This document shows, piece after piece, positions 2,753 to 57,365 of a stretch of 64,000 bases of DNA (position 1 is the stretch's first letter; each line of letters begins with the position of its first letter). Origin of the DNA: a virus (Duplodnaviria > Caudoviricetes). The stretch spans positions 896-64,895 of IMG/VR virus record IMGVR_UViG_3300028581_000001; one strand, 5' to 3'. Position numbers and translations under genes: made by a program. Below the pieces are notes generated by a model. The model was given only the letters and a program-made list of their open reading frames with translations, was not told the DNA's origin and ran no database searches.

Positions 2753-3802
2753 ATGTTGACTATCGTCAATAACTCTTTATAAAAGATTTAACAGAAATAA
2801 CAATAACCCCTGCTTAAGGACTAGTCCTTATGAACCTAATAAGCTGTATGCTTATAAACTACATTCCTTTCTAAAGGAAGCGAAGTTGCATTGTTCTGTG
2901 CCGTATGCTGTACGCATTTAGCACGCTGTCGGTTCCCAAACTTTATAACATCAAATCTCGAACTGAAGTGGGAAGTAAAGCCTTGCCTGAAAGGTACCAA
3001 TCTGCTAGGGGATACGTTATGCTTCCACAAATGGCAAAGCTCTTTGGGGCAATAGAAATCTCCATGCAATAAGATGTTGGGGAGATATCTTATTAACTAG
3101 AAAATTATTAGGGTGGTGGTCGGTGGAAGGTGGTGGCTCTTATTGTAAACAAGTGGCGAGCGACAGCGAGCCACATCTTTCGAAGAAAGATAATACAGCC
3201 ATGAGGATTGAGAAAAAAAAGACCATCAATGAAGGCGTTGCCTTCATGTATTATATCAATAGATTTTATACCATACGCAAATAAAACCAAAGTGTATTTG
3301 GCTAATAATTATTTATAAGTTCTTAGTTAATTTCTATCGGCTTGTCTTTGTCTGACAGTCTGCATTTAAATTTACTTTGATATGTTAAGTCTTGGCTTCT
3401 ACTTCTTATCAGTCGTCTTCTTCGGCTTACCATTTGGCAGTCTGCAACTTCTTACTGATGTGAACATTATATATTTATCAGATAATAAGTCAAATTAAAA
3501 TTAATAATTGGCATAACAATGCTATTATTTTAATAAGTAATTAAAAAATAACTGTAAAAAAGTTAGTACAACCAAACTAATCCAGACAAGCACAAGAGAT
3601 GACGAATTACTGTCATATAACTGGTAGTATTTAGACATTAAAATTAACTGTTTCTTGAAACATATGATAAGAAAAGATATAGTCCTATGTTATGTTAGTA
3701 TTTATTTATGTGATTGTTTATTATATATAGTACATAGTACTTAGTTAGAGGTTATATATAATACATTATAGTAATACACAATCGCCGACAAAAATGATCT
3801 AC

Positions 3803-3842
3803 AAAAAAGAACCTAGTTCAAGAAAGATGTTAGGTTCTTTTA
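3803..3842. terminator. Intrinsic terminator (probably bidirectional)
   Basis: AAAAGAACCTA...TAGGTTCTTTT inverted repeat downstream of the 3861-3947 ORF. Confidence 0.65.
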
Positions 3843-3860
3843 GATATATGTAGGGAAGTA

Positions 3861-3947
3861 TTATTTACAACCTTTCTTTCAAGGTTTACATGCTCATCAT
3901 TTCTTTCATGGAACAGGCATAGATTTCTTTGGTGCACATTTTGCCAT
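3861..3947 (-). CDS. 28-aa Lys/Gly/Cys-rich basic peptide
   Basis: MAKCAPKKSMPVPGKKGGACKPGKKGCK*; own TTGCAT-N16-TATAAT promoter (3976-4003) and terminator. Confidence 0.55.
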
Positions 3948-4045
3948 AGCAATATAATTAATAATTAATGTAATTATTATATTATTATTATATGATAATG
4001 CAAATGTTTTTTGAAAAAAAAGATAGCCTAAGCTATCTATAAAAC

Positions 4046-4176: not shown

Positions 4177-4210
4177 AAAAAAAGACCTGCAAATTTAGCA
4201 GGTCTTTTTA
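4177..4210. terminator. Intrinsic terminator
   Basis: AAAAAGACCTGC...GCAGGTCTTTTT. Confidence 0.7.
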
Positions 4211-4222
4211 TTTATCAGAATA

Positions 4223-4651
4223 TTATTTAAATGAATCTAGTAAAACTTGATTAACAATAGTAAAAGTATTATCAGTATTAACAGTAGCTATTGGAAAGAA
4301 ATTACTTACACGATTATCTTTACTTCAAGTGCGAGTAACCTGAGATATATTACCATTATCATAACAGGTAAGATATCAATCTTTCTTTGTCAATTTACAA
4401 GAAGCATTTCAGACTTTTGTTTTAACAGATTCGATTACTCAATCAGCATTAACTTTATCTTCGAATTTAGCTTCCATAATTTCAGGTTCTGTATTAGCAA
4501 CAGGAACAGAGAACTTATTAATAAAAGCTTGAAGAAGAATTTTAGGATTAGCAAAAGAAAACTTTTCAATTGCCTGTTGAAGACTTTCCATTATAGGTTC
4601 ATCAGCAAGAGTAACTTCTACTGGAACAATCTTAAGTTGTAATAGTGCCAT
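4223..4651 (-). CDS. Hypothetical protein (142 aa)
   Basis: MALLQLKIVPVEV... open through three TGA codons to TAA. Confidence 0.75.
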
Positions 4652-4774
4652 ATATTTATAAAGGTTAAAAGATAAAGGCAACAGTATACATAAAAAGTAT
4701 ACAAAGAATTTTATACATATATAATATTATTTTATTAAACACATAGTGTTTTATAAAACAGTTCTTTGTAAACA

Positions 4775-5340
4775 GACAGATATAATAATCTGCTAGATAT
4801 AAACCATTTCATTTTCTACAAAGTCCATATAGTTTTATACTATTAAACACCCAAGTTGCACTTGTATTAATTTGTATACAGTAAACAACTTATTAATTTA
4901 ATAGCAACAGCATCAATAAGATACTATAGTCTTATATATTATTTGATCGCATTTAACTAGCGAGTTCTAGCTTCTCCCTATAGGGTGCTTGAACATAATA
5001 TATAAGATACAGTATCTTATAATAATATAGGCAGCTTAACGCCAATAAACAAACATAGCATATATTGTAAGCTAATATATGTGTTTGTTTATCTTTTTAT
5101 ATTATTATAAGATAGTATTTACTAATTTGATCCCATCTAGATTTTTCTTCAGTTTATCCAATTAGTAGAATAAACTATAAATAAGAATTAGTCGCGGCTC
5201 TTATTAGCCCGAACATAAGCCCCTCAGCTTGACTTATGTTCTTCTGTTTGGTTCGTTGTATTTTTTATCCTGCCCAACCCCTTTGGCAGTTTTTACATTA
5301 TACATAAGCTGTTCGTGTATAAAAGGTTTTATAGTCTTTA
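4775..5340 (-). ncRNA. Candidate structured ncRNA (~560 nt)
   Basis: No credible ORF; back-to-back inverted repeats; immediately downstream of hairpin element A. Confidence 0.45.
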
Positions 5341-5354
5341 CTGACTTAAAATAT

Positions 5355-5400
5355 ATCAATAGGTTTTATACCTCTAAATAAAACTTACCTTTGTAAACAA
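5355..5400 (-). promoter_or_regulatory. Hairpin element copy A
   Basis: TTGTTTACAAAG-N18-TATAAAA with AGG/CCT stem. Confidence 0.7.
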
Positions 5401-5610
5401 CTAATAATCTAAACCCCTACTAATGAGTTCTTCTTTCAATGCAGATACAAATGGACAAAGCCATTCTATGTATCTATCATCAAAATCAAATTCAAATTCT
5501 TTATCAATCTTTTCAGATAGATAAAGTCTATATGAATTAAGTAAGTGTTTATTAGAGTAGGTCTCAATATATTTAATATTGATATCTACTCATTGTAATG
5601 TTTGAGACAT
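5401..5610 (-). CDS. Hypothetical protein (69 aa)
   Basis: MSQTLQGVDINIKY...RGLDY*. Confidence 0.65.
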
Positions 5611-5629
5611 AATTTTTTAAATTATATAT

Positions 5630-6000
5630 TATTGGTGGACTGGCTTACCAAAGATCAGGTAAGACTAACATAAAATAATTTATGTACGCAGCCCATAAAA
5701 AGATTAAGGCTGTACACAGCTGTACTAAAACTCCTTAATCTTATATGATATATTATACTGCTATCAACAGTTGAATACTTTAGAGATAATATATATCCCA
5801 TTCGCAAAAGTATTTCTCAAGCTACATTTTTTAATTAAGCTTTATTGACTGAGTATACTACGTATAGTTTACCACTGCAGTCTCAAGTATCAGGCGAGTC
5901 TCTCTCTCGCATGAGACCTATGAATGCAGGCATAGGTTGCTCGTATAGTATTGAAATTCTGCAGTTCAATACTACGCAAACAACCTACGCCTGAGACATA
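5630..6000 (-). ncRNA. Candidate structured RNA / long leader
   Basis: Series of hairpins including a 67-nt imperfect stem at 5927-5993; no ORF. Confidence 0.4.
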
Positions 6001-6002
6001 GT

Positions 6003-6233
6003 CTATTTACAATTTTGATTTTGTTCTTGAATAAGTTCAGAAAGAATAATATCATTAGAACTTCTTTCGATTTTATTTTGAAGATCAAAACAATAAACAT
6101 TTTTATTAACATTATGAAACCATAATGCTAAACAAATAAATATAGTAATGATTCAAACTATCAATCATTGAACACAGCCTTTTATAAAAGCTGTTTTACG
6201 AGAACATACTCTCGTCTTATTAAATTGATTCAT
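6003..6233 (-). CDS. Small membrane protein (76 aa)
   Basis: One hydrophobic segment GLIVGIITIFICLALWF. Confidence 0.6.
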
Positions 6234-6239
6234 TTGTAT

Positions 6240-6647
6240 TTATTTATTATTATTAAATACATTTCAAGAGTTAGATGAATACATCTTAATCTCATTTAAG
6301 AGTTTAAGATTATATTCTCTAACTTCAAGAAGTTCTTTTTCTTTTGCATTAAGTTCTCTGTCTCTTACAGCTTTATATTCTGTAAAAGTATCAGAGAATC
6401 ATTCAGCAATATTAATAGATTTATGCCGAGTATCTCTCATAGATTTATTATCATTGATCACCACTTTAGTATCAGCTTCTTTACTTTTAATTTTTAATTT
6501 CAAAGTAATATTGGCTGACCTTAAAGTAGGATGTTCAATTATAAACATAGCATCATCTGATATTTGAACTACTGTTTTAACTACAGTAGCTATGGTTATG
6601 TTATCTGCAACAGATTCAACAATACCATATGCTTCTTGTTTATTCAT
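6240..6647 (-). CDS. Hypothetical protein (135 aa)
   Basis: Track ORF 6399-6647 extended through TGA to TAA. Confidence 0.7.
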
Positions 6648-6655: not shown

Positions 6656-7582
6656 TTATTTAATACGAAATATAAAGTTCTCGTCAATAGTTTGACGTAG
6701 AACAACTGACATGCAATTCAATACATTATTATTCCATCTCTCTAATGAAGTTGCATAGTAACTAGGATCACCTCAACCTCAAGGACTAAGACTTCAAACA
6801 GATTGCTTATGTCAAAGCAAATCATTATTTAAAGTTTTAAAAATCGCACGAACTCAAGATTCAAGAGTAGGAAATGAAACTTTATTTCATCTATCATTGT
6901 TGCCTACATTACCTATATTATTTTTTGTTTTAGTATGTCTTCAGATTGTAGTGTCAGCCCGAGATATACATAACCCAAGTTCTTTCTTTATCTTAAAATC
7001 TTTTTCTGCACGAATCCAGTACTCAACTGGAACCTTAGCATTCAAAGTAATTTCTTCAAAAGAAGAACCATATAATTCAGACCTAGGTTTTGTTTCTCAA
7101 AAACTTGTGTAACCCCATCAATCTTTAAATACTCTTTTAGGAATTATCTTTTTGATGGAGGGTACTGGACTTATAGCCCCTGTTGCAACTCATGAATTAA
7201 TGAAACCAGTAAGTGTAGATCAAGTAGAAACTATATTAAAGTTAATTCTTATTGTATTAGAATTAATCTTATAAAAAGAATCAATAGATTTCACAATTCA
7301 TGTTTGACTATTTCATTTAATTATTGCTTCTATATATATTTGATCAGCAATAACAGATTGTAATTTAGCTTCTAATTCTGTTCTTGTATTTAAAGTAACA
7401 GATAAATCAGCAGAAGCTTGATTAATAATATTAGCTCTTATGTATTCAGGATTGCTAATCCTATTTATATAAGAAGTTATTGTAACAAAAGTATAAACAA
7501 AAACAAAAAGAACAATAGTAATTATAGATTTTATCTTGGCTCATGCGAGTAAGTCTATAATTTTAATTTTAAAATTTTCCAT
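6656..7582 (-). CDS. Membrane-anchored protein with C-terminal lysozyme-like (glucosaminidase-type) domain
   Basis: N-terminal TM helix and coiled coil; C-terminal LCIS(CGG)ADTTIG..KNNIGNVGNND..FPTLESGVRAI..YATS..WNNNV. Confidence 0.55.
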
Positions 7583-7662
7583 GTTTATATAAAAGTTAAA
7601 TAATAAAATATGGAACTTACGATACTATTTTACATTCGTATACTTACGAACTATAAAATAAT

Positions 7663-7708
7663 ATCAAAGGGTTTTATACCCTTGAATTAAATCAATCTTT
7701 GTACACAG
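7663..7708 (-). promoter_or_regulatory. Hairpin element copy B
   Basis: CTGTGTACAAAG-N18-TATAAAA with AAGGG/CCCTT stem. Confidence 0.75.
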
Positions 7709-7861
7709 TTAAAGTGTCTGGAATTTCCAAACTGTTAATAACCAACCTACCATGAGTGCTATAATAATTCAAGACTTATCTCATGTAAAAATACTAAACA
7801 CTAACACAATCAAATCTAATATGATTGCTAATGTTAGTAACCACGATTGTATCTTCTTCAT
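7709..7861 (-). CDS. 50-aa two-TM membrane protein
   Basis: Two hydrophobic stretches. Confidence 0.6.
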
Positions 7862-7900
7862 AAATGAATTAGATTAATAAATAAAATATAAGATAGATCT

Positions 7901-8017
7901 CTATCTTTTCTTAGCAATAAGAATTGCCTGCTTAACAGCATAAACAAATCTTTCTTTACTAGCAGAAATATCTGCTCAATAAAGATATGCTAATACTAAT
8001 AATTTAATTAACTTCAT
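7901..8017 (-). CDS. 38-aa hypothetical peptide
   Basis: ATG to TAG directly after element C. Confidence 0.45.
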
Positions 8018-8061
8018 AACAAATAAGATTAAATAATAAAATACTTACGATACAAAGATAT

Positions 8062-8105
8062 ATCAAGAGGTTTTATACCTCTATTAAATCAATCTTTGTA
8101 CACAG
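8062..8105 (-). promoter_or_regulatory. Hairpin element copy C
   Basis: CTGTGTACAAAG-N16-TATAAAA with AGAGG/CCTCT stem. Confidence 0.75.
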
Positions 8106-8159
8106 AACCATAACAACTAATCCAAGCACAGGAGATATACTCCTGTACTAAATTAATCT

Positions 8160-8318
8160 TTATGATGGATATGCTATAGGTAGATTCCTTTCTATACAAA
8201 ACTTATTAATCAATCTTGCTTCATAAGGTTTAATCTTATCAGCTCACCTTACTCATAACAATTGATGTCTACAGTATGAACCTCTTGCAGCTCATACATC
8301 CTGTCAGTTTATTATCAT
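8160..8318 (-). CDS. Hypothetical protein (52 aa)
   Basis: Open with TGA=Gly; ACAGGAG/CTCCTGT hairpin downstream. Confidence 0.5.
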
Positions 8319-8895: not shown

Positions 8896-8913
8896 ATTAA
8901 TTAAGTTAAAAAA

Positions 8914-8960
8914 TATCAGGGGATTTTATACCCCTGAATTAAATCATTCTTTGTAAACAA
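8914..8960 (-). promoter_or_regulatory. Hairpin element copy D
   Basis: TTGTTTACAAAG-N18-TATAAAAT with TCAGGGG/CCCCTGA stem. Confidence 0.8.
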
Positions 8961-8962
8961 AA

Positions 8963-9247
8963 CTAATCAATAGATGATGTGATTATACTAATGATATCTT
9001 CTTTGCTTCTTTTAGCAGTAAGCCGACATCATCAGTAAGCAAATCAATCTGATTCTTCTAATAAAATATATGAATAACCATCAAAGAAATCAAACCGAAC
9101 ATATGATTTCTTTCAGAACCGAATGTATTCAGAAGTCTTATTAATCTTTGCATCCTTAATCATATGCTTAACAATTTCTGGTAGTGACTTCTTTAATAAT
9201 TCATTATCGAAATCAGCTATCAAAGTAACTTTACGCTTTACTTTCAT
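8963..9247 (-). CDS. Hypothetical protein (94 aa) with three CGG codons
   Basis: EYI(CGG)FG, YV(CGG)FD, GGC(CGG)LT. Confidence 0.65.
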
Positions 9248-9897
9248 GTTTGTTCAAGGTTACATTCTAAATTAATCTCATCAATAGGAGACTGCAAATC
9301 TTGAGGTTTAAAGTTATATCAAGAGCAGTCGGCTATATACATAGCCTGTTCCCATATATCTGCATTGTCAGGAGCATGTTCATATGCTTCTATAACTCAA
9401 CCATCAATCTCTAAATCATCAAGATTACTTTCTCTATTAGAAAATATTTCATACACAGTAGCATTGATAGCTTTCTCTGATGTAGATTCTTCTAATACAA
9501 AATACTTTCAATCTTCATTGTATCATTTGAACTCAAATGATTTATCATTACAATAATAATCTTTGAGTTTAGAATACACAATCTCGCAGAACTCTTGAGC
9601 TTGATACATAACAATTTCATCTTCTGAAATATCATCTTCCATAATCATTTCAACATACTTCATAATAGTAGATTCATTCTGTTCTTCTTCTAAACAAAAT
9701 TGTTCCCATTGTGTCTTAAGATTATTAAGTAGATCTTCATTATCAATTTCATTTCATTGCATATCACAAACTTGAAATTCATCAAAAGATCAACCTCAAT
9801 AATAATAAGTATTGTTATGTGTTACATAACCTACATATCAAGTGAAATCTAATACTAGATCACACTTGTATGTTTTAGTTTCACTTCTTAAAATCAT
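9238..9897 (-). CDS. Acidic hypothetical protein (219 aa)
   Basis: Open with TGA=Gly; D/E-rich. Confidence 0.7.
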
Positions 9898-10397
9898 AAA
9901 TTTTCTGGAAAATTAAAAGATAAATGTGCTCATATAGATATAACAATAATAAATGTTGCTATTGCCCATATGATTAATACTCATTCATATTGACTATCTG
10001 TCATAGTAGTATCATATCTTATTGGTTCTTCAGATGTACTTCAAGTAAAATCAAACATATCTAGTAATCATATTCAATCATTATGATATACATGAACAGT
10101 AGTTATTATTGGAGTATATCATTCATAATCTCTACTACTATAAGATTCAGATGGTTTAGTTTTAGTAGTAGATTTAGAATAACTATTACTAGAACTAGAT
10201 TGTTTAGTATAATTACTAGACTTATATGTATTATTAGTACTAGTAGACTCTACGGCTTTACTCCGAGTAGTATTACTTCTTGTTGCATTTGAAGAGCTAG
10301 ATGTTTCTATTGTAGCAGTTCATCATCATGCTCTTGCATTTACAGTAGCTATTCATATAAATAAAATAAACAGCATTAAAATTAATCTTAACTTCAT
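9888..10397 (-). CDS. Signal peptide, Ser/Thr-rich linker and C-terminal TM (169 aa)
   Basis: MKLRLILMLFILFIGIATVNARAGGG...; C-terminal VLIIWAIATFIIVISIG. Confidence 0.65.
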
Positions 10398-11700: not shown

Positions 11701-11723
11701 GATATATGATTGTTAAGAAATAA

Positions 11724-11770
11724 ATACAGGGGATTTTATACCCCTGTAATAATTCAGACTTTGTAAACAA
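11724..11770 (-). promoter_or_regulatory. Hairpin element copy E
   Basis: TTGTTTACAAAG-N18-TATAAAAT with TACAGGGG/CCCCTGTA stem. Confidence 0.8.
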
Positions 11771-11773
11771 ATC

Positions 11774-11929
11774 TTATTCAAATTCTTTAACGAACCTAGA
11801 ATTACAAGAACATCATTCTGTAAAATAAGTTCTAGAATAATATTCTGATTTTTTCCCTGCATTGAATTGCGATACTGGTCTATGGTATCACATAACACGA
11901 GTATATACTTCACATCTTTGTCTCTCCAT
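11774..11929 (-). CDS. Stand-alone class III RNR (NrdD) C-terminal glycyl-radical peptide (51 aa)
   Basis: MERQRCEVYTRVMGYHRPVSQFNAGKKSEYYSR; RVxGY radical loop with Gly encoded by TGA. Confidence 0.85.
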
Positions 11930-13685: not shown

Positions 13686-13703
13686 AATAAATTGGGTTAA
13701 AGA

Positions 13704-13750
13704 ATACAAGAGGTTTTATACCTCTTTAGTATTTCAGTCTTTGTAAACAG
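13704..13750 (-). promoter_or_regulatory. Hairpin element copy F
   Basis: CTGTTTACAAAG-N18-TATAAAA with AAGAGG/CCTCTT stem; overlaps the 3' end of the upstream gene. Confidence 0.8.
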
Positions 13751-14039
13751 ACAAGTCTATTCACTTAGATTTAAATATCATTCATATAACTAATAGATCA
13801 GGTAGAATAATATCTAACTTGATCCAGTAAGTTCAATGTGTTCAGTTATATCCATAACTGCTTCACTCATTGGAGATAGCACAATCAATCTCTACACCAT
13901 TATCTATTGTTATAGTCAATGGTTTATCAATAAACTTCCTTGCATCAAATGATTCAGGAACATTGAATGTAGCAGATATGTTTCAATCTGCTATACTCTT
14001 TGTGCTAATACCTTTTCATGGAATAAACTCTATGTTCAT
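13716..14039 (-). CDS. Hypothetical protein (107 aa)
   Basis: Open with TGA=Gly; its TAA lies in the loop of element F. Confidence 0.6.
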
Positions 14040-15483: not shown

Positions 15484-17898
15484 TTAATGTTTAACATATA
15501 AATTTTCAAATGTAGTACAACGAGAAAGTCATACATACAAAAGTTCTTTTGACATTCACTTAATATATGTTAAGCATACATTATCTAGTGAAAGTCATTG
15601 ACTATTATGTGAAACAAATCATTGACATACAAATGAATGATCTCATTCAATTTCTATATCATATGTATTTCTAATTCATATATTTTCTATAGAAACTATT
15701 TTATCATAATAGAAATTATTATCTAATGTTTTATTTAATACTTTTAATATAAATCATTTTGATCTAGCAAATGAATCTAAATATATACATTGTTTATAAG
15801 AAAGATTTTTATATCTTAAAATAGCTTTAAGTTTTTTATCTTTATTATATCACAATCATTTAATACATTCTTTAAATTCATCTATTATTTTATTTCTATT
15901 AATAACAAAATCAATACTAGATTTTCATTTAGATATAAAATTAATTAATCTATCTTGTTTATATCAAACATTAAATCATAAATATTTATTGAATAACATA
16001 ACATTTATTCAAGTTATATTTAATACATATGCTTGATTATGTTTATCTGAATATTTATTTAATTTATTAATATAACTTACTATTCAGAAATCTAATAATA
16101 AAAGTTTAATCTTATTAATTAAATCTTTTGAAATAGATACATATCTAATATTTCAATTCTTAGAAATAGATCAATCAGTATCAAATAATCATTTAAGTAC
16201 ATTAGATTTTATTAATCAATTAGATTTGAAAATTCAATCTGGTATTGTTTTATCTTTTCATGTACAATAATCTAATCATATTGTATATAATAAATCTCTA
16301 AACATTTTAGAAGTAAATATAATTGACTTCGCTTTATTATCTTTTTTTCATTTTAATAAATAATTAATTCAAAAATTAGATAATAATTCACAACTACTAT
16401 TTAATATATGTTCATCCATAGAAGTTATATCAATTCTTCAATCATCTTTATAATTATAAGATCAATCTCAAATTAAAACTCAAATGAAATATGCGAAATT
16501 ACTATCTATATATTTTGTTATATATATATCTTTAGATCTATTTCATAAATCTGGTTTGTGTAATTCAATATCATTTCAATCTAAATTAATAGTTCTATTC
16601 ATTATAAGATAATCTCATATATTTAATTTTCAAGATTCAATATATTCGTTTGTATGATTTAATACTGATAATAATCTATGTTCTTTAGTAGTAATAATTT
16701 CTCATCATGATTGTGTAGTTATTTTAATAACTTCTTTTTCTCATGTAAATTCTTTTCATATTACTTTCTTAAAAGAAAATCAAGTATCAACAGTTTGTCA
16801 TAGTTGTATATCTTTAATTGCAAATAATCAATCAGTTGTTTTTACTAATTGATTTTCTTCAATACATTTATGGATTGTCATAGCCCATGAAAGTTTCAAT
16901 GGTATCTGATTATAAGTACCAATAGTTATTTCTGTAGTTCAATCATACTGAACTTCTTTCCATTCTTCATAACCTATCTCAAAGTTACAATCGAATCTAT
17001 CAGAATGAATCTCAACTGTATTGGAATTACATTTAACTACAGTTCAAAGATCACCATTGACTAATCAATTCTGTAAGTTCTTAGTAACCATAATTCTACA
17101 TCATTCTTTTAAATATAGTTCTTCTGGTGTAATACAGTTCTTAGAATTGAACTTACCATATATATATCATTTGTAAATATATTCTTTTGCTTTAACAGTT
17201 TCAAATCTTTTCTTATTAAAAGCATCTACCATATTATTAAATGGCATTAAGTGAACACTATGCTCATCTCAATATCATCTATTGAAATCATATATTGAAC
17301 CCATTTTATTATCTCTAATATTATTAAGTAGTTCAACAAAAGTATTATCTTTTTGTCTACGTACTTTAATTAGATTAAGTTCTTTGAATCAACTATAACA
17401 AAATGCATGATCGAATGTCAGCTTTCAATACTTAGTAACAAGATCTTCTATCTCATTCTTATCCTGTTCTGTGAAACTACCATACACAGGTGGCAATTGA
17501 TTTGGATCTCATACTAATATCATCTGTATTCAACCAAAAGCTTTCTTATTTCATCTCATTTTCTGAAGTAAGTAATTAATATAATCCAGATAGTCTGGTC
17601 CAACCATTGAGATTTCATCAATTACTATTGTATCTATCTCTGGCCAATCAACACTCTGTTGTTTGATGGGCTTATTATGTAAGTAGTTACCGAACATCTT
17701 AAATGTAGAATGAATAGTAGCTCATCATATATTTATTGCTGCAATTCAAGTAGGTGCAACTACTATTACATTCTTTCATTTAGCTCTACTTTGTTTAATG
17801 AATTCCTGAGTTGTATATGTTTTACCAGTTCATGCTTTCCCTGTAAGAAAACAATTAACTCAACTTAACATATGTTCAAGTGCTTTATCTTGTGTCAT
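15484..17898 (-). CDS. Pif1/RecD-like SF1B helicase containing an intein
   Basis: FLTGKAGTGKT, APTGIAA, IDEISM, GDPNQLPP, QIPLKLSWAMTIHK|SQG, YVGLSR. Confidence 0.92.
15604..16866 (-). mobile_element. Intein (421 aa) with LAGLIDADG homing endonuclease
   Basis: Starts CIEENQLV, ends YDIEIEGDHSFVCQGFVSHN before Ser+1; GVLIGDGS and GLFDTDGS motifs. Confidence 0.92.
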
Positions 17899-20518: not shown

Positions 20519-20535
20519 ATAAATATAGTTAAATA

Positions 20536-20581
20536 ATACAAGAGGTTTTATACACTTTATTAAAGAAAACTTTGTAAACAG
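20536..20581 (-). promoter_or_regulatory. Hairpin element copy G (imperfect stem)
   Basis: CTGTTTACAAAG-N17-TATAAAACCTCTTG. Confidence 0.65.
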
Positions 20582-20832: not shown

Positions 20833-21651
20833 TTAATAAAATAATTTAATTAATTTTCTTTCTTCAACTATTGGATCTCTAATTGATTTTTGTTTATGAA
20901 ATAAATTATGACAATTTATACAAAGATGAATTATATTATTTATATGATGTAAATTTTCATGTTTAGGTTTTTCACTTCTAAAAATAATATGATGATGTTC
21001 CCATCTTAATGAATTATTAGTTCAACAATATTGACAAAATCTATATCAATATTTTGATTCCATTTCTTCATTTTGAATTTTACAATTTTTAATAAACTCA
21101 TTTCTTTTATAATGATGATCAAAATTATTATTTCATTTTTTATACATTCAATTTCTATATGCAGGATTATTTTCTCAAATCCTTTGTTCTTTTAATAATA
21201 TTAACTGACATTCTTTTGAACATGTTTTAAGTTTTGTTCTATATCACTTAAATTCTTTTCAACATTTTATACAAATTAAATTATATCTTAATTTTTTTGA
21301 ATTTAATATATATCTTTCTTTATGTTTTTCATAATCAATCTTGGCAAATTCTTTTTTCTTTTTATATAAATTTTCTTTATATATAGGATCATTTAATTTT
21401 TCTTTTAAAAGATTTCTTCATCTTGCTAATTTACATATATGAAAAGAACAAGTTAATTGATTATGTACTTTTTTTATAAACTCTTCTCAACATATAATAC
21501 ATTTGTGTCAATCTCTTTCATATACTTTACGTATAGTATCTGCATCTAACTTACGTACAGTATTATGTCAAGAGGTTTTATACCTCTTGATTTTGATTGA
21601 CTTTGTAGGCTTGGCGAATTTAAAGTCAACGTATGAATCTGTATTGTTCAT
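20833..21651 (-). CDS. HNH endonuclease with zinc-finger repeats (272 aa)
   Basis: VYERDGHKCIICG, CxxC..TCS repeats, CQYCG..EHHHII..NIIHLCINCH. Confidence 0.8.
21567..21610 (-). promoter_or_regulatory. Hairpin element copy H (inside HNH coding sequence)
   Basis: CCTACAAAG-N18-TATAAAA with 8-bp TCAAGAGG/CCTCTTGA stem. Confidence 0.7.
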
Positions 21652-23880: not shown

Positions 23881-25515
23881 TTAGTTAACGATTAATTTAG
23901 ATTCTCATCAATATGAAATATGAACTGCAGTACTAAATGCTTCACATACAAATAAATGTGTTCATACTCATATAGTATTATTAGTAGTTCATCAATTTAT
24001 TTTAGTTCATCCAAGAGAATATATATTAGATAGTGTTGAGCTATTATATATTGTTCACGCATTTATTGTTATGTCTCATCAAGAATTATTATTAATAACA
24101 AATGAATATGTTTCTCATGGAACAAGTCTATAGAAATCTAAATGGAATACTCATCATGCTGTTACTGACATTCAATTAGTTATATTTTTATATTGTTTAG
24201 ATCAAAAGTATGCATCAAATTTTAATCAATCTCATCATGCTAATATTATTTCTGCATAAGGAAATGATACATTTGATTTAAATGCAACTGGTTTATTAAA
24301 TACATTTGCATTTTTGAATTCATTTGTGTCTCATTCTAGATATGCAGGTTTACCTGTAAAAGTTACTCATCATGTCTCATCAACAAATAAATTATCTGTT
24401 AATGTTTCTCATCCAATTGAAGTATATGAAATTGTTCATCAATCTACATATGTTCATGTAGCTTCTTGTTCCATATATATTTCATCTGCATCTGTATATT
24501 TTTTAATACTAGATTCTCAATATAATGTATAGTATCAAGATGATTCAGTTATTGTTACTGTTTGATCTATATCACTAAATGTTTTAGTAGAAGTTCATAT
24601 AGGTTTAATATCTGCTATTGTTTGTCAATTTAATCATGGATTTCATATGTCTCATGGATTTCATTGTTGACCCTTAAGAGATTGTGTTGTTATAAGATTA
24701 GTCCAAGCTATATCTGTTATAAGTTTCCATTGAATCCAAGTGCCAGATTGATCAACTTGCATTTCAATTTCAGCTCAATCAGCTCAAGTTATTTCTGCTA
24801 CTGTATATAGATTGGCCCATTCAGATCATTCTGCATCTACTTTCCATTGAATTTGTCATCATGAATTTCTAAGTATCAATTGATCTCATTGAGGTCATTG
24901 AATTCATTCATCTCAAGTTTCTCATTGTATTCATTGTGTTCATACTGAATATGTGTTCATCTTAGTTATATTTTGTATAGAAGGTCATGACATTGTTACT
25001 ACTGCTATTCTATAAAGAGTTGGTAGAATATCAGTACTAATAAAATAATCATAGTCTTTTATATAAATATAATTAGTTGCTCATGATATCAATGTTTTAT
25101 TTGGTAATCATGATGATGTATCAAGATCATCTATAACTACATAGTTACTTGATATAAAAAAGTTTCATCATTTAACTATAAGATCAGTTGCACTTTTTTT
25201 GAATGTATAGGTTTGTTCTTGTGATTGACCTATACAATAATTAAGATAATCAATTGAATTGCTCAATACAACTCTAGCATTATCTAAATGTAACTGTGCT
25301 ACATCTCTGTTTACTCAATAAACATATGCTATATTTCAAACAACCCTGTGATGAAATATGCTTTCTTGTGTAACTAATCACGGATCGATTAAAAGAAATC
25401 ACATTTGACTACTAGGTGGAGATGATAGATAAACTGCTATCTCTCATGTAGTTTCATTTCACATTGGTTCTGTGAGTGATGATTCGAAATTTCTTTTTAA
25501 AGTTATATTAGCCAT
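23881..25515 (-). CDS. Tail fibre protein with collagen-like repeats (544 aa)
   Basis: GTQGIQGETGDEGIQGPQG and IQWK-type fibre repeats. Confidence 0.75.
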
Positions 25516-33283: not shown

Positions 33284-34633
33284 TTAAAAGTTGTCTATTC
33301 TAACATATGTATTTTCGTAAGTTTGACCTGCGAATATATTAGCAATAGTCATCTGAGCTGTATACTTAACATAGTCTACTGATGTTTGTGGCATCTTAAG
33401 AACTGTATATCCAGTACCAGAAGTTTTTACTAGTGCACCTGCATCAGTTACTGATTGATATTCTGGAGTTCTGAAAGTAACTAAATGTTTTGGGAAACCG
33501 AAAGCTTTTGAAGCATTAGGATATAGAGTATTTAGAGTATGAGATACAATCCATTTAACATTTTTGAAATATGGAGAACTATATTCAGTTATTCCAAAAT
33601 CAATTGTCTTTTCTTGAAGTGTAAAAAAGTTACTCATATCATACATAATCTCAGAAAGATTAGTAATGAACTCATAGTTACAATAAAATGTAGGAACTTC
33701 AGATCAAGTATAAACTGGAGCTGAACACATTCTATTAATAACTTCTACTAGTTTCTTAGCCTTAGCTTTACCTGCAACAACTCATGTAAAATCAATTATT
33801 GCTGTACCAAGATTACCTTCTCTAGCTTCCTTCTCTTCAATCAAAGTATTAAGACCTTGAGTTTCTGATTTAGGTCCAGAAATATTTCTACCAATATACC
33901 ATGCTTTTGCGAAAGCGTTGTTAGATCTATTAATAACTATAGCAAATTTAGATTTAATATATTCCTGTGCATCAACGAATAGTCTAGTTTGATTGATTTC
34001 TTGAGAATCAAATTCCATTGATCAACCAAATTTTTGGAAATATACTTTAACTGGAGTGTAATCTGAATCAACTCAACCTCTAGTGATCTCAGTACCATGA
34101 ATAATCTGATTATATGCAAACATTACATAGTCATCAGTAAGACAAGTTACTGCAGAATCTAGAGTTACTACTGTTGGATTTCATAGATTTGGAGTAATAA
34201 CAGTTATTACTCTTTGCTGATCAGTTGTTACTGAACCAATTCATGGTTTAATAACTACAACGTCACCTACTGCAAGATATTTAGCTGTAGCTTCTGAAAC
34301 TAATATAGTAGTATCTGCAGTATTATCTGCTGTGATAATAGCTTTATCAGTAAAAGCTTGAGCTTCATTCCATACAACTTCGTTCTTGTTGATAGTCATA
34401 TCAGTTTCAAGAGCACCAATTGATTTAAAGTTTAGAGCTTTTTGTTCCATATAAGTAAGGCCACCTCTTTTAAGTTTACCTCAATCCTTATATACATTTG
34501 GTAGGTAAAGACCTACATACATTAGTTCAGGGAAATCTCTTATCCAAGAGTTCATAACCTGAAGACCTTTTGCTGTAACATTATCTAATATAGATTGAGC
34601 ATCTGTTACAGTAGTTTGTACTGCGTTTGACAT
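33284..34633 (-). CDS. Major capsid protein (449 aa)
   Basis: Three track ORFs join in frame via TGA; follows portal and scaffold; low TGA use; TAA TAG then terminator. Confidence 0.75.
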
Positions 34634-37729: not shown

Positions 37730-39802
37730 TTAGTAAAGTCATCTGTGATATCAAGATTTATTATCATCAACAGATTTATCTGAATCATTATATAAATAAG
37801 TTTCATAAGTTCAAGCTTCAGTTACAAAATTCTCTATATCTTTTACAGACTTTAATTCTAGAATTAAGTACATATACATAATTGCATACGCACATGCTAA
37901 TACTAAATCATCTTTCTTAGTTCATTTACCTTTATATAATATAACTTCTCAATGTCCAGATTTTAATTTAATAAAATTATTCATCTGTTCTAATAGATCA
38001 TTGAGATCTCAATTAATCTTAAGTAGATTTGTATTAAATACTGTAGCCATTGTTGTAACAATGGTTCATTTTCTACAATTATAATATCAGTATTTTTTAT
38101 TATATGAAAGTTCTCATTGTCATGTAGACTTTATCCGAGCATCTACAACTCATTTAACATCTTGTTCTGATACTGATTCTCATACTCATGAGCGATCTCA
38201 TATAACTAATAAATTTTTATATTTCTTTTTGTAATCTTCTGCATAAACTAATTGTGTTCAATAAGTTGCATTCAATACTTTTGTTGCAGATTCTATTTCT
38301 CTATGTTTTAAATTAATTAAAACTAATCAACATGTATCTGTCAACTTACCAAGATCAAATCAAAGTATTCTAGGATCACTATCTGTATATTTACTATGAT
38401 TAGCATTTACTATATAAGTTCAAGTATTGAATACATTAGATTCTTCTAATATTATACAGTATCATTTAGAATAGAATTCTTTTTCTCATTTAATTCTTAA
38501 TGCATCCTTAGCAAGTTCTACTTGCTTCTTAAATTCATCTATAGTTTTTCATTGCATCATAGCTTCATTTTCGTCTATAGTTAAACGATATGAAACTATA
38601 TCATCATTATCTATTTCTCAATCTACTAATAATTTATAGAACCAATGGTCAACTGGAGTTTCTTCATTGATTGTAGATACTATAAAAAAATCAGAAGTTT
38701 CGAATGCTGCTCTTTGATGAAAACTTGCCCAGAATGAATTTGTAATACGAGCTGCTTCATCTATTATAGCAAAGTCACATGCAATACCTTCTCACGTTGA
38801 ATTACCTAGTTCATTATTACCTCTATCCATATTGAATAGAGATATAACTTTGAATGTATTTCATGTAAGATTACATTTAATTTCTTGCTTTGCTCTACTT
38901 ATATCAAATAGTCTTTTACCATTATCAAGCTTCTTGAATAATAAATCTCATAAAAGAGATTCAATATACTGCATAGCCTGATCTCAAATGTTTGATTTCT
39001 CAGGTACAAAATATTTAATCTCTCTATAAGGTCTACCACCAAATCATGGTTTAGTTGATAGCAATTCTCTTGCTGCTATTAATGCAGCAAAATATGTTTT
39101 TCATTGTGATCTTGAAGCTCATACAATATTGTATTTCTTCCAATTCATTATTACTTTCTTTGCCCAATTAAATAATTTAAATCAAGCATGTTTACGAAGT
39201 AGGTGTCAATATGCATATCATCTATCAGGATCACCTATAACTTTATTTGTATATCATTGTTCTATTTCAGAATCTAATACTCATTCTAATGAAACATCTT
39301 TAATATTTATTCATACAACTGATCAGGACATAACTCTTTTTTGTTTTTGTTTTCATCAAAATCAAACAAGTTTTTTTTCTGAATCATAATATACTCATAA
39401 TAAATTAAATAGATTTTTAATTATAGTATAAGTAAGATCATCTAATATTCTCTCTTTTGCCATTACTGACAAATAGAATTGAGTAACATTTCTTGTAATA
39501 TCTTTTCATTCAACTATAGGTAAATTTAAAGTAAATGGTTTATTATTAAAAAATTCTTTTATTACTCATCACTCTGGATCAAATCTAATATCTTTAATAA
39601 CATCTGGTTTATATTTTTTGAACCGAACTTCATCTACTACTCTAAATATATCTTCAGTATGTTTATCAACTTCAGAATAGAATAATTTTTGTTTTGATTG
39701 TATTACTGATCTATCACTAATCATAGATCATAAAAAAGATCTAATAGCATCATTTACTTCTTTTGATGAAAACGAATTATTTACATCTGATAATGTTATC
39801 AT
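37730..39802 (-). CDS. terL: Terminase large subunit (690 aa)
   Basis: GASRSQGKT, FAIIDEAA, GFDLGKLTD, KDDLVLA. Confidence 0.9.
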
Positions 39803-40322: not shown

Positions 40323-43300
40323 TTACTCTGGGCTAAATGGTAATCATTTTGTTAATCATTTACTAGTACGTACTGGATCTTCAAATCATGTACCTAAAAA
40401 CTTTTGTCTTATTTTTTTGTATGGTGCTTTAAGATTTATATATTTTTTTTCTGTTTCGTCAACTTTTTTCTTAACGACATACATAGGTATTATTCATTTA
40501 GATTGATAACCTTGATAAATATTTGTAATAATTATTCAAGCATACTCTTGATTCATTTCAAATTTAGCAGGATTAAATCAGAATCATTGTGGCCTAAAAT
40601 CTTGTTTAGCATTTAGATATTCTTGTGGATCTCTAGATAAATTTCATTCTTTTCATGGAATAAATTTTCTTATAGGATCAAATTGTTTTGAAAAATTTGG
40701 TCTAGCTCAAGAAAAAGCATTGCTTTTAAATGGAGATTTATAATCTCATGTAGCAGTTCTTTTTCATGCTGTTGCATTTAAATCATTAAGATAAGATTTA
40801 GAATCATAATCCATAGATTCTGTAGAAACTTTAAACATCCAATTAGTTATTTGTTTCTGTGCATCTTGTGTTAATGTTTTGAATCTTTCATTATCATTAA
40901 ATAAATCATATTGAGATTTACTCATTCACATAATTACTGCAGCTTGATTAGCTAGTTTTGATTTCTTTTCCATGAAAGGATTATTTTCAATTTGATTTAA
41001 GAATTTTAATCAAACTTCTATTCATGTCTCATTTCATTTCAATCATTTAAATGCTAATGCGTATTTAGATTGCAATGTTGCTACCTTAGTATCTCAATTC
41101 TTCATTACATTATTAACTAGATATTCTGTTGATACCAATTTCATTATATCATTCTTTGCATATTTAAAATTTTCTGCTTCTTCAAACTTAGTAAATAGAT
41201 CTCAATAATTTTTTTGTACATCTTTCTCTATAATATTCATTACAGAATTATTATCTAAATTAAGATACTCTTGATATTTTAATAATGCATCTCTAGTTAT
41301 TTGATTTTCCTTTTCAGAAGTCAATGCTAATGTTTGCTTTCAAAAATATTGTTTACCAGTTATAATTCAATCTGTTTTTTTAGCTTCTTCCAACTTTAAT
41401 TGTTTTTCCTTATTGATTATCATATAAAGAAATAACGGTGTCTTAAGATGAGTATTCATATCCATTAATGCTAATGATTTTAATAATCATTTATCTACTC
41501 AATTTACTGAAACTATTTGCTCTAAAGTTTTTCAAGTTTGTTTTTCTAATTCTTTATTAATTTGTCACTCAAGAATACTCATAACTTTTTCTGGAGTAAA
41601 TTGTTTACCAGATTTATCAGTTAATATTCTTTTTCATTTTTCATCTAATCTATCATATCAGCTATAATATAATTGATTCAAAATATCTTTTGCATTAGCT
41701 TCTTGATCTAATGTCATTGAAGTTCATTGCATTCATAGTAATGATGAAAGATTATAATCTTTATCAGTAAATCAAATTTGTCATCACTTTAAAAGTTTTC
41801 AAAGATTTGGATCTTTTTGTATTCTTGTTTGTATATCTTTAGAAAGATCTGTTAATACTGAATATGCAATGTTATCATTATCTCATTTTACTAATGAGGT
41901 AAAACCAGATAATACTGATTTTATAAATCATTTATCTTTATAACTTGCAAAATTTTTTCATTCACTTAGTTCTTTAAACATTTCATCTCAATATGTATTT
42001 CATCATAATCATAATATTCAAAGATTAGAATCTTGAGATATTGAATTAAAATAATCATCTGATTCTTTCATTCAATTAAATCTTATTGAAGCAGTATAAT
42101 GTTGTTTGGTTGCATATTGTAATGCTTCAAACATATCTCATTTTCATAATACAGATTGTGCTACATATCTATCGTATGCTGTATTAATAAATGCTCATTG
42201 TTTAAATAATCTAGTCATTCTATCTAATAATGTTTTAGTTGTATACGCAACTTGATCAGATTTAGTTCAATATTCTCAAGCTGTATTCCATGCATTTAAT
42301 TGTTTATCATAAATAATTCTTACAGATACAAATGCATTATTAAATATTTTTTGAAATTCTCATATACTTAATCTATCTTCATTATCTTTTTCATATTTTT
42401 GAAACTTAAGATATATTCAAGTTGTATATAGTATTTGTTTAGCTAGCATTGAATTATACATTGCCCAATCATGAAAGTGTGCTATAAATCATGCAGTATT
42501 TCATAGATATAATTGTTTCATTCAAGTTAATAGAGCTGATTCTTTTTCTATTAATGTTGCAGCTTTATGAAAAGACCATCACATAAGATATGAAAAAGAC
42601 TTGACTGCGAATTGTGTAACAAAATTATCAAACATTAAATATGAATCTTCAAATATTGTTCATGAAGCTATTGCAGAAGATGATACAACTCATCATCATG
42701 AGTTTGCAAAGTTTCTTCTTACTGCAGATTGAAATACATTTTTAAATTCTTGTCATCAGTTTTCAAATGCAAGATTAATAGCTTTCATATCTTTAAATTT
42801 AAACTGTTCCATTGTTTGTAATACGGCTGTAATCTTACGAAGATTCTCTAGTGGCCGATCATTAAATCATAACATATTATTTATAAATGAATCTACCATT
42901 TCACCTGCTCTTTTAGCAGAATCTTTTCACACAACCTTTCAGGCTGCATTTGTAGCTAATTCTTTTGTAAATTTAGATATAGCTTGTTGTAAGAATGATT
43001 GATTTAAATTTTTTCAAAATCATGTACCCATCATTAATACATCTTCAAAATCCATAAGTCATTGTGTCTTTATTAATCTATATGCATCATCTAGTTTATC
43101 AGAATTTTTTGCTGCATATGCTCTTAGTTCTATATAATTTGGCAATATTTGTGACATTCATGCTATAATACTATTCTGAGTTAAGAAAGTTGAAGCAGTT
43201 CAGTATGTCATATTATAATGGAATCATTTAGCAAATCATAATACTTTATCTAACATAGATAATCAGTTTTTAAAAACTGCTTTACTCATTACTTTAATTT

Positions 43301-56264: not shown

Positions 56265-56289
56265 TAGTTTTCTCAAATAAAAAAATAAA

Positions 56290-57135
56290 TTAATTAGGAC
56301 TATATGGTTCTGTAGATCTTGTAATCCATTTACGAAGTCTAGCTTTTAGATTATAAATTTCATTATCTTTTTTCTCTCAATAGTATGCAATGAATTTATC
56401 TAGTTCATTCATAACAACTTCAGTTCAAGTAAAATTTCAATCTCTATCTTTTTTAAATCTATCAGGATATTTTTCTAAAAAAAAGTCTATCATCCAATCA
56501 TATATGTTTTTTAACTGTTGTAATGTAAATGATTGTTTTATATTTGCTTCTTCTAAAATGTCGCAAAGTTTCTTTGTTCATCTTTTTTCTCACATAAAAG
56601 AATAAATTTCTTCTCTTGTTGGTATAATTAAAACTTCTAGCACATCACTTTTCTTTTTTTTCTTAGCCCTTATAGGTAGCATGTTACCAGTAGTATTATA
56701 GTCATGTATATTATTATTTATATGAGATATATTATTATATATATCTGTAGTATTATTACTGTCGTTCTCACCGACTACGTCGTTCACATCGACTTCACTC
56801 ACAACTTCTCACTCAGTATCGTCTATGTAATCAAGAATTTGTACTTGATATAAATTTACAAAACATTCAGTTTTACTCTTCCATCTTTTATATTTTTTAA
56901 TTATTTTTAAAGATTCTAATTCTTTTATTCATTTCATTATAGAATCTCTTCAACATTTATTTTTTTCTGCTAAATCCTGAATTGCTATTTCAGCTACTCA
57001 ATTTTTATTTGCATAAAAACATAATGTTATGTAAACGCATTTTGCATATATATTCATATCTTCTAAAAAATCTTTATTAGGAACTGTCATAAAAGTAGTT
57101 GGTGCAAATTTAATTTGCGATTTATTATTATTCAT
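56290..57135 (-). CDS. Replication initiator with N-terminal winged HTH (281 aa)
   Basis: FMTVPN..AKCVYITL..IQDLAE..IKELE; Asn-rich linker; KFIAYY..LRKW C-domain. Confidence 0.7.
56761..56793. repeat. Two GTCG-N7-CGAC iteron-like palindromes
   Basis: GTCGTTCTCACCGAC and GTCGTTCACATCGAC beside an AT-rich tract inside the initiator gene. Confidence 0.5.
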
Positions 57136-57152
57136 AATATATTTAATTAATA

Positions 57153-57365
57153 TTAAAGCTGAACTCATTCATAATTTATTTCTTCTCAATCATTATCTAC
57201 CATTTTTTTTGTAATCATATATATGTCATCTATTTTTATTATAAATGGTCATATATCTAAAAACTTTTTAGTTTCTAGTTTTTTAAGTATAGTCTCTGTA
57301 TCTTCATGATTCATCTCTAATGGAGAATCATATCATCTTACATGTAAGATTAATTCTAATTTCAT
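57153..57365 (-). CDS. Hypothetical protein (70 aa)
   Basis: Open with TGA=Gly; leads the replication operon. Confidence 0.55.

Follow-up and report, generated by a model that had tools for sequence, protein, structure and literature searches.

A gene-free, strongly folded spacer behind a promoter-like hairpin element of a lake phage: a candidate structured RNA

What does a phage keep in several hundred nucleotides that hold no gene and are crowded with inverted repeats? The question is raised by positions 4775 to 5340 of the stretch of DNA analyzed here, a 64,000-nt window from a lake phage. A preliminary description made from the letters alone proposed that this region is structured from wall to wall, that a repeated hairpin element (element A) drives it, and that it is a new phage noncoding RNA (ncRNA), which it took to be an early large ncRNA, an array of small RNAs, or decoys.

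The window covers positions 896 to 64895 of a 64,895-bp IMG/VR virus record and is nearly the whole genome; the record has direct terminal repeats and a completeness rating of 100%. Its GC content is 26%, and the minus strand carries nearly all genes. Under translation table 11, we counted 25 stop-free frames of at least 100 codons, which together account for 0.15 of the window. Reading through TGA raised the count to 106, the longest of 4471 codons. TGA accounts for 296 of the 4461 codons of the largest ORF and for 69 of 637 in another. These counts are too high for tryptophan and suit glycine, which points to genetic code 25 (TGA = Gly). A published study notes that most phages with Absconditabacteria as their predicted hosts share this code with them (PMC10746230). 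As judged from profile and sequence matches to a large terminase (37730 to 39802), a primase-helicase (54558 to 56276), a replication initiator (56290 to 57189), and tail proteins, the genome is that of a phage. It also encodes a capsid protein (33284 to 34633) and a Pif1-type helicase with an intein and a LAGLIDADG domain (15484 to 17898).

The spacer is flanked by two minus-strand ORFs with ATG starts. Upstream is a 69-aa ORF (5401 to 5610, code 25), whose stop codon adjoins an element A box and whose product had no match in Pfam or PHROG searches. The first gene downstream encodes 142 aa (4223 to 4651, with its ATG at 4651) and has no assigned function. Its product matched nothing in Pfam, PHROG, or viral contigs, and its sole match among metagenome contigs was a fragment of this phage, 100% identical, that ends at window position 4725. 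A 308-aa neighboring protein matched one distant record. Between the two flanking ORFs (4652 to 5400), there is no ATG ORF of at least 60 aa in code 25. When the cutoff was lowered to 25 aa, the sole minus-strand ATG ORF was one of exactly 25 aa (4735 to 4812), which overlaps an element A box, and the remaining small ORFs use TTG or GTG as start codons and encode low-complexity products. The absence of a credible ORF, first noted in the preliminary description, therefore holds under code 25. The same is true of the absence of a tRNA cloverleaf, since ARAGORN found no tRNA or tmRNA in the 64-kb window. Small protein genes could have been missed nonetheless, and the hairpins might then lie within or between such genes, as they do at 7716 to 8060; indeed, the neighboring gap at 7583 to 8159 holds two ATG ORFs, of 43 aa and 59 aa, that a 60-aa cutoff hides. 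Considering what the 25-aa cutoff returned within the spacer itself, we rate this reading as very improbable indeed.

If the spacer holds no protein gene, the element that faces it becomes central. Element A, read on the minus strand, consists of an 11-nt box TGTTTACAAAG (T or G at the fourth base), 13 to 17 nt of intervening sequence, a hairpin with a stem of 3 to 6 bp and a conserved loop of 7 to 8 nt (TATAAAA), and a T-rich tail. A gapped-pattern scan returned 6 copies compared to 0.00 expected from 100 shuffles. A looser scan found exact boxes at 20580, 13749, 11769, 8959, 8104, 7707, 5399, and 4774, all eight of them belonging to the minus strand; the plus strand had none. The stems vary between copies yet stay complementary (four G-C pairs in two copies and mixed A/G stems elsewhere), and the loop is fixed. 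An ATG ORF lies about 20 to 90 nt past six of the eight copies (8959, 11769, 13749, 20580, 8104, and 7707), and the boxes at 8959 and 5399 begin 2 to 4 nt past the stop codon of the upstream ORF (2 nt for the copy at 5399). Thus, element A occupies gaps between small genes, pointing at whichever gene comes next. The copy at 5350 to 5399 has its box at 5399 to 5389, a 15-nt spacer, a hairpin with the conserved 7-nt loop (5373 to 5361), and a T-rich tail. It lies on the gene strand and faces about 700 nt without a credible ORF; the preliminary description likewise had element A pointing into ORF-free sequence.

The conserved loop together with the covarying stems favors a recognition hairpin over a plain terminator. 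A terminator consensus scan flags two of the copies as terminator-like, and element A may be both. From its layout, we consider it a promoter-like composite pointing to lower coordinates. When searched against viral contigs, the element A pattern gave only nine single, unrelated matches. Pieces of the element also occur in and around the spacer. The loop motif is present four more times (4709, 4748, 4832, and 5326), and the partial copies previously seen at about 4829 and at 4764 correspond to a 4-bp hairpin with the conserved loop (about 4828 to 4843) and to an exact box (4764 to 4774). These lie on the minus strand in the segment at 4690 to 4835, together with the loop motifs at 4748 and 4709. 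This segment may contain a second promoter for the 142-aa gene, an end of the proposed RNA, or both.

Downstream of element A, a simple consensus scan, which could miss weak sites, found no minus-strand terminator-like site between 5350 and 4210. The first one after element A is a strong intrinsic-terminator-like hairpin at 4179 to 4209 on the minus strand, with 12 pairs followed by a T run, 14 nt past the stop codon of the 142-aa ORF.

All of the inverted repeats named in the preliminary description were recovered in place. They include 4930 to 4942 with 4995 to 5007 (13 nt, 100%), 4916 to 4928 with 5008 to 5020 (13 nt, 92%), 5045 to 5055 with 5082 to 5092 (11 nt, 100%), 5120 to 5131 with 5156 to 5167 (12 nt, 92%), and 5211 to 5219 with 5233 to 5241 (9 nt, 100%); the short TGCC/GGCA and TTATAC/GTATAA stems were seen in the segment folds. 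One further pair, 5013 to 5040 with 5087 to 5114 (28 nt, 82%), was absent from the earlier list.

Folding the minus strand segment by segment gave the following predicted order, with z scores as minus/plus. The first 90 nt past element A (5255 to 5345), in which the loop motif recurs at 5326 to 5334, show no significant structure (z = −0.67/−0.23). Three moderate hairpins follow at 5116 to 5250, namely, the one at 5211 to 5241, a small GC hairpin at about 5190 to 5205, and an extended form of 5120 to 5167; they fold better on the minus strand (z = −2.57/−1.66 for 5176 to 5250 and −2.43/−1.35 for 5116 to 5204). The strongest element, Domain II (5008 to 5120; z = −7.43/−6.78), is predicted to be a three-way junction built on a perfect 17-bp A/U basal stem, from which a hairpin branch of about 20 bp (5045 to 5092) and a small GC hairpin arise. 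Domain I (4912 to 5012; z = −3.69/−3.10) is a second predicted three-way junction, in which the perfect 13-bp basal stem formed by 4930 to 4942 and 4995 to 5007 surrounds two small hairpins. A long hairpin at 4836 to 4910 (z = −4.08/−2.96) contains G·U pairs that only the minus strand can form. The segment with the partial element A copies (4690 to 4835) scored −2.91/−2.50. The signal thus lies in 4836 to 5250 and does not extend to the segment next to element A, so that the wall-to-wall description goes too far.

As a whole, the 566-nt stretch folded to −154.5 kcal/mol on the minus strand (z = −8.04) and to −130.8 kcal/mol on the plus strand (z = −5.63), with none of 100 shuffles as good on either. 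Four control stretches of 566 nt, taken from the minus strand of this genome, were ordinary, with z scores of −1.83, −0.10, and −1.31 for three coding stretches and −1.36 for an ORF-free one (3400 to 3965). Set against this range of −0.10 to −1.83, the scores of the spacer are not typical of AT-rich shuffles; a typical score was one of the outcomes that the preliminary description had named as refuting its proposal. We conclude that the structure is real in a statistical sense.

A high z score does not by itself set the spacer apart. For a genome background, we summed local-fold energies (150-nt span) in 566-nt windows (n = 1,269). By raw energy, the spacer ranked 76th of 1,269 on the minus strand and 148th on the plus strand; after regression on GC, the ranks were 98th and 236th. 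On the minus strand, then, it is only within the top 6 to 8% of this background. The top-ranked windows were its neighbors at 5450 to 6500 and 7500 to 8300. The segment at 5611 to 6010 scored −6.17/−4.75 and includes a hairpin of about 29 bp (5935 to 6001) whose G·U pairs are again exclusive to the minus strand. The segment at 7583 to 8065 scored −5.56/−5.10 despite containing the small ATG ORFs (43 aa and 59 aa) mentioned above. Since a segment that holds ORFs scores as well, a high z score here is not specific to ORF-free sequence and is no proof of a noncoding gene. Since the neighbors fold as strongly, the spacer is one part of a hairpin-rich early zone from about 4.7 to 8.3 kb. The ORF-free gaps of related phages were unremarkable (z = −1.6 to −3.1). 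Taken together, the observation is statistically strong, yet it is less uniform and less exceptional among its neighbors than first stated.

The two strands do not fold equally. The minus strand had the lower z score in seven of seven segments, and in minimum-free-energy folds limited to a pair span of 160 nt, G·U pairs made up 20 of 176 pairs on the minus strand compared to 7 of 164 on the plus strand, a roughly 3-fold excess. The hairpin at 4836 to 4910 reaches −22.0 kcal/mol on the minus strand and −13.5 kcal/mol on the plus strand, where it is 8.5 kcal/mol weaker. Palindromic DNA that decays at random should leave G·T and A·C mismatches equally on either strand, and the bias seen here favors selection on an RNA of the minus strand, the same strand as the flanking genes. 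Domain II is silent on this point. Its pairs are purely Watson-Crick and it is as stable on one strand as on the other (−35.0 kcal/mol on the minus strand and −35.6 kcal/mol on the plus strand), so it carries no strand information, and a DNA cruciform would be equally possible.

The equal stability of Domain II fits a different kind of element, one that acts as DNA. Clustered direct and inverted binding sites for a phage or host protein, perhaps able to form a cruciform, could make up an operator or other early control region, a group of tandem promoters, a site for packaging or partition, or a secondary origin, and the RNA stems would then be by-products of the two site orientations. Operator, iteron, and promoter arrays typically consist of short repeats clustered in both orientations, and the spacer has such a cluster. 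The octamer ATAAGATA occurs four times within 200 nt (4916 to 5114; three direct copies and one inverted copy) out of 15 copies in the whole window, counted over both strands (128 kb). Since the inverted copy is complementary to each of the three direct copies, any of them may serve as its partner, and Domains I and II therefore compete for 5013 to 5020. A near-perfect 21-nt palindrome lies at 5001 to 5021, and palindromes with a loop of 0 to 1 nt, such as this one and that at 4747 to 4760, cannot form hairpins as RNA. The scattered loop motifs of element A at 4709, 4748, 4832, and 5326, which are additional to the full copy, would also suit a protein-binding region. However, a double-stranded DNA site predicts neither the better folding of the minus strand in every segment nor its surplus of G·U pairs. 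Most of the stems (e.g., 5045 to 5092, 5211 to 5241, and 4836 to 4910) are unique sequence rather than repeated sites. For an origin in particular, the divergent intergenic gap beside the replication initiator and primase-helicase genes (54558 to 57189), 50 kb from the spacer, would be a more conventional place. We therefore consider a DNA-level element somewhat unlikely, though it is the main rival of the RNA reading.

The plus strand could also be the one that is transcribed, giving an RNA antisense to the gene strand that would start near 4730 and end near 5092 to 5100 or 5270 to 5297, where a hairpin is followed by a T run. A sigma-70-like match (10 of 12 positions) is present on that strand at 4698 to 4725, the hairpins at 5045 to 5092 and 5271 to 5289 are each followed by a T run on it, and its overall z score of −5.63 is also significant. 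Promoter-like matches, however, are no commoner than in shuffles (55 versus 49.7 expected), every segment folds less well on the plus strand, and no other plus-strand gene occurs within 50 kb. Such an antisense RNA seems to us quite improbable.

We used related phages to examine whether the spacer is conserved. The capsid protein has 76 relatives at E values up to 1e−5, mostly 50 to 75% identical and many on contigs of 58 to 67 kb; the closer ones, at 70 to 75% identity, include several on contigs of 58 to 66 kb. As single queries against viral contigs, terminase and capsid gave no match. An alignment of 29 capsid relatives led to four IMG/VR records (G002 to G005) and a contig of a 1.1-Mb metagenome-assembled genome (MAG; G006), with capsid identities of 59% (G002), 50% (G003), 34% (G004 and G005), and 57% (G006). 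Gene order is collinear with G002 and G003 over window positions 11991 to 57955, and no ORF between 1973 and 11990 was matched in either, which places the spacer in a hypervariable accessory zone. The 142-aa ORF was not found in G002 to G005. Searches by blastn with 4682 to 6010 or 4682 to 5400 found no credible homologue of the spacer in INPHARED, five related virus records, one MAG, or 401 sampled genomes of the phylum of G006. The search of those 401 genomes gave six weak matches (E of at least 6e−5 per genome), and the two that we inspected were chance matches to unrelated AT-rich sequence. Among the genomes searched, which include relatives of 34 to 59% capsid identity, the spacer is thus present in this genome only. 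Element A was not found in G002, which has a repeated motif of its own (12 to 18 nt) that has the core TACAAA in common with element A, and no analogue was found in G003.

This restricted distribution would fit a spacer without function. The remnant of a lost cassette, littered with duplicated pieces of element A, could persist in a fast-evolving accessory region, with the palindromes arising from recent duplications and inversions. Both the spacer and the 142-aa gene are absent from the five related records, the zone unmatched in G002 and G003 stands against a collinear remainder, partial element A copies sit at the flanks, and stems as perfect as those of 13 and 17 bp (100%) suit a recent origin. 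On the other hand, coding decay gives no reason for a z score of −8 when four controls, including the ORF-free one, are ordinary. Several independent, nonrepeated hairpins contribute to the score, and the strand bias would be left unexplained. We think this reading unlikely.

Conservation was seen at another locus. The minus-strand stretch at 2856 to 3125 lies 2 kb from the spacer, past a degenerate element A copy (3245 to 3300), and has a GC content of about 40% compared to 26% for the genome. It shares long identical blocks, including ones of 19 nt and 15 nt, with an ORF-free gap of G002 (25166 to 25374) and with contig 4 of G006 (9807 to 10015). A consensus fold of the three sequences has 36 pairs, of which 3 are changed on both sides, and in a wider alignment 6 of 53 pairs are changed on both sides. 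When the three-sequence alignment was turned into a covariance model (R1), the model matched its own training members only, namely, one of five virus records and one of 151 genomes of the phylum. Nothing corresponding to 2856 to 3125 was found in Rfam or INPHARED. By sequence comparison, this stretch is a better-supported candidate for a conserved RNA than the spacer is.

For the spacer itself, what we observed is that credible ORFs are missing, that the sequence folds in excess of chance and more so on the minus strand, that an element A copy stands at its upstream end and points into it, and that a terminator-like hairpin follows downstream. Transcription, the RNA ends, and the function are what we infer, with due reserve; the sequencing runs listed in our search were ten DNA runs of lake-water metagenomes, with none of RNA. 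Our tentative reading, to which we assign a probability of about 0.45, is that positions 4830 to 5350 or so would give rise to a structured, untranslated RNA of the minus strand, either as a leader or as a separate ncRNA cassette. Transcription would start from the element A copy at 5350 to 5399, and the product would be about 0.5 kb long. Its core would consist of two Y-shaped domains, each about 100 nt long (4912 to 5012 and 5008 to 5120), and the long hairpin at 4836 to 4910. Because the spacer sits where neighboring cassettes of element A followed by a gene hold their small gene, it can be viewed as a separate RNA cassette or as a long leader. As a leader, it would contribute about 700 nt ahead of the 142-aa gene, and the transcript would continue to the terminator at 4179 to 4209. 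As a cassette, it would yield an RNA of about 520 nt with element A as one boundary and the A-like hairpin near 4830 as the other, and the box at 4774 would serve the 142-aa gene. The cassette version agrees almost exactly with the limits proposed in the preliminary description.

With regard to function, the A/U-rich stems of 17 to 20 bp would most plausibly be sites of double-strand-specific RNA processing or stabilizers of the early transcript, which is the simplest proposal that the predicted folds suggest. A bolder version would make the spacer a stand-alone early ncRNA gene of about 0.5 kb and of an undescribed kind, with two tandem Y domains, a G·U hairpin, and a phage-specific hairpin promoter, standing where a protein gene would otherwise be. 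Early in the infection of a code-25 host (Absconditabacteria/Gracilibacteria), its product might serve as decoy or sponge against a host double-stranded-RNA-binding nuclease or an RNA-sensing defense, and it might belong to an island of RNA genes in the left 6 kb together with 2856 to 3125 and the hairpin at 5935 to 6001. This version is speculative, and we hold it to be distinctly unlikely.

No described RNA family accounts for the region. At the gathering score, Rfam 15 gave no match over the whole window. With E values up to 10, the segment at 4640 to 5420 gave six matches, all to microRNA-type families or small RNAs and all far below threshold, the best reaching 18.8 bits where the gathering score is 100. 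This is consistent with the preliminary suggestion of a new RNA. Two repeat-based classes were rejected. A CRISPR-repeat mimic or mini-array, or a ToxI-type tandem antitoxin RNA, would have at least two direct repeat units of about 25 to 40 nt, spaced or in tandem. Apart from pieces of element A, 4652 to 5400 contains no direct or tandem repeat units, and Tandem Repeats Finder reported no array between 4286 and 5480. Lacking such an array, the spacer is ruled out as a CRISPR-like or ToxI-like repeat RNA. The same result leaves the array of small RNAs, one of the options first put forward, without support, and the decoys as well if these are read as decoys of CRISPR repeats.

To our knowledge, phages of bacteria that read TGA as glycine are known almost only from metagenomes, their control of early transcription is undescribed, and we know of no genetics for the code-25 host group. 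If the spacer encodes a functional RNA, it would be a large structured addition to the short list of phage-encoded ncRNAs, tied to a hairpin-type promoter-like element that recalls the strategy of phage N4. If it is a cluster of DNA sites instead, it would mark the early control region of a phage family. Under either reading, metatranscriptome mapping gains a defined target of about 500 nt and a nearby candidate that is conserved in two related phages.

The comparison with N4 begins with the element itself. The hairpin promoters of the N4 virion RNA polymerase and element A are both short inverted repeats with conserved and variable positions, and both occur in several copies ahead of early genes. 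In the N4 promoters, the variable stem bases need only preserve the hairpin, and the promoter has a GC-rich heptamer centered at −11 with a 3-nt loop (PMC4496689). Element A resembles these promoters in pairing a conserved loop with stems that vary while staying complementary. Unlike them, it has an A/T-rich loop of 7 to 8 nt and an extra 11-nt box upstream; neither the GC-rich heptamer at −11 with its 3-nt loop nor a T7-like virion RNA polymerase was found to go with it. A genome of about 65 kb with one giant protein of more than 3,500 aa is a further likeness between this phage and N4. The giant ORF here encodes 4,461 aa and matched only Pfam DUF7831, with no PHROG match and no PDB sequence match. 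In these searches, then, it showed no polymerase signature.

Three well-known phage and plasmid RNAs resemble the spacer in part. The RNase III sites of the T7 early transcript are single hairpins, each about 60 nt long and situated between genes. The spacer would likewise place long double-stranded stems between early polycistronic units; RNase III-type cleavage calls for uninterrupted double-stranded RNA of about two helical turns, and the predicted stems of Domain II, at 17 bp (perfect) and about 20 bp, would be of a size that double-strand-specific RNases can cut. Unlike the T7 sites, several predicted branched domains fill the whole cassette. The pRNA of phi29-type phages (Rfam Phage_pRNA) is a structured phage RNA with a three-way junction and an early promoter near the genome end. 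The spacer shares its phage origin, a predicted three-way junction, and an early promoter-like site near the genome end but differs in size and number of domains, gave no match to that Rfam family at E values up to 10, and belongs to a phage with a conventional large terminase. ColE1 RNA II is a pre-primer with a dedicated promoter, about 550 nt long, structured, and untranslated. The spacer is similar in size, predicted structure, and possession of a dedicated promoter-like element; in contrast to ColE1, the sequence downstream showed no features of an origin, no antisense partner is defined, and the replication genes lie far away.

The closest comparison is with the 5′ untranslated region (5′ UTR)-derived and early ncRNAs of virulent phages such as phiKZ, LUZ19, and PAK_P3, which are likewise untranslated, structured, preceded by a promoter ahead of a gene, and outside Rfam (PMC10914365). 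As described there, they were detected by ONT-cappable-seq, are mostly shorter than 250 nt, and have a mapped start and a premature terminator (PMC10914365). Unlike the RNAs so described, the spacer is about 0.5 kb long and is predicted from sequence; it follows a promoter-like element and contains no internal minus-strand terminator-like site, since the consensus scan saw none on that strand from 5350 to 4210. The spacer lies outside every described family, and we regard it as a candidate, as yet unproven, for addition to the loosely defined group of early and leader RNAs of phages.

The element-A sequences form a family on the minus strand. We located copies at 5348-5407, 7656-7715, 8053-8112, 8908-8967, 11718-11777, 13698-13757, 20530-20580 and 21564-21607, and all of them have this orientation. 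Each comprises an 11-nt box followed by a hairpin, in which the loop is conserved and the stems covary, and small ATG ORFs lie directly downstream of most copies. Element A is a candidate for a promoter specific to this phage and may combine promoter and terminator in one composite. Two small minus-strand ATG ORFs at 7716-8060 had been missed at a cut-off of 60 aa. One (43 aa) has a hydrophobic N-terminus and is followed by a hairpin and a T run, while the other (59 aa) encodes a protein with a double hydrophobic segment.

Element A is absent from G002, a related virus record, which has a repeated motif of its own, GCCTACAAATAC, often with a TGAT extension. The core TACAAA is common to this motif and element A. 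Copies of the G002 motif lie on the plus strand at 3880, 4569, 11278, 16625, 23179, 23432 and other positions (pieces L029-L030 of that record), in the early region, as element A does in the window. Variable hairpins with T runs follow the motif at a distance of 20 to 45 nt.

A degenerate element-A copy in minus-strand orientation was found at 3245-3300; its hairpin part matches that of the 5352-5372 copy at 20 of 21 nt. This copy points toward a conserved non-coding element at 2856-3125 (minus strand), which we consider an RNA candidate. The element contains no ORF, and its GC content is about 40%, compared to 26% for the genome. Counterparts were identified in G002 (25166-25374, plus strand; L030:5166-5374) and on the phage-bearing contig of the assembled genome G006 (C4 9807-10015, minus strand; L044). 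Identical blocks of 15 and 19 nt are common to the element and its counterparts in these two phages, whose capsids are only 57 to 59% identical, and all three sequences have a predicted fold in common. The 15-nt motif, CCGACCACCACCCTA, occurs once in the window's element and twice in each relative. Changes on both sides of a pair were seen in 3 of the 36 pairs of the consensus fold in the core alignment and in 6 of 53 in a wider alignment. Searches of the element against Rfam and INPHARED gave no matches, and R1, a covariance model built from the three sequences, recovered its training members and nothing further from 5 virus records and 151 genomes of the G006 phylum.

A second ORF-poor, strongly folding minus-strand stretch spans 5611-6010, with z scores of -6.17 on the minus strand and -4.75 on the plus strand. 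It contains a hairpin of about 29 bp at 5935-6001 whose four G.U pairs exist on the minus strand only, and it holds the best-folding 100-nt window on the minus strand genome-wide. This stretch had no match in Rfam.

Among the coding regions, a Pif1-type helicase (15484-17898, minus strand) is interrupted by an intein that carries a LAGLIDADG homing-endonuclease domain. The homologues in G002 and G003, another related record, are about 385 aa long, and from this length they probably lack the intein. The minus strand also encodes a giant ORF of 4461 aa (40323-53708) with 296 in-frame TGA codons, which is kept in both relatives (4052 aa in G002 and 3961 aa in G003). Its sole match was Pfam DUF7831 at residues 2500-2616, with a DNDGD motif about 90 residues ahead; PHROG and PDB sequences gave none. 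Neither these searches nor the motif assign the protein as a polymerase.

Strongly skewed low-complexity tracts were found at 2405-2760 in the window, L030:5440-5700 in G002 and L034:16647-17191 in G003. The window's tract is purine rich on the plus strand and then consists of A/T-only repeats with periods of 6 to 29, while those of the relatives are A/C rich. In the window and G002, the tract adjoins the conserved RNA candidate or its counterpart. Possible roles for these tracts are those of an origin or of a spacer. A divergent intergenic gap at 57190-57673 folds above background. On one side of it lies the replication-initiator operon, on the minus strand, and on the other a short operon on the plus strand, the first gene of which encodes an HU-like DNA-binding protein. 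For the origin, this gap is the more conventional location.
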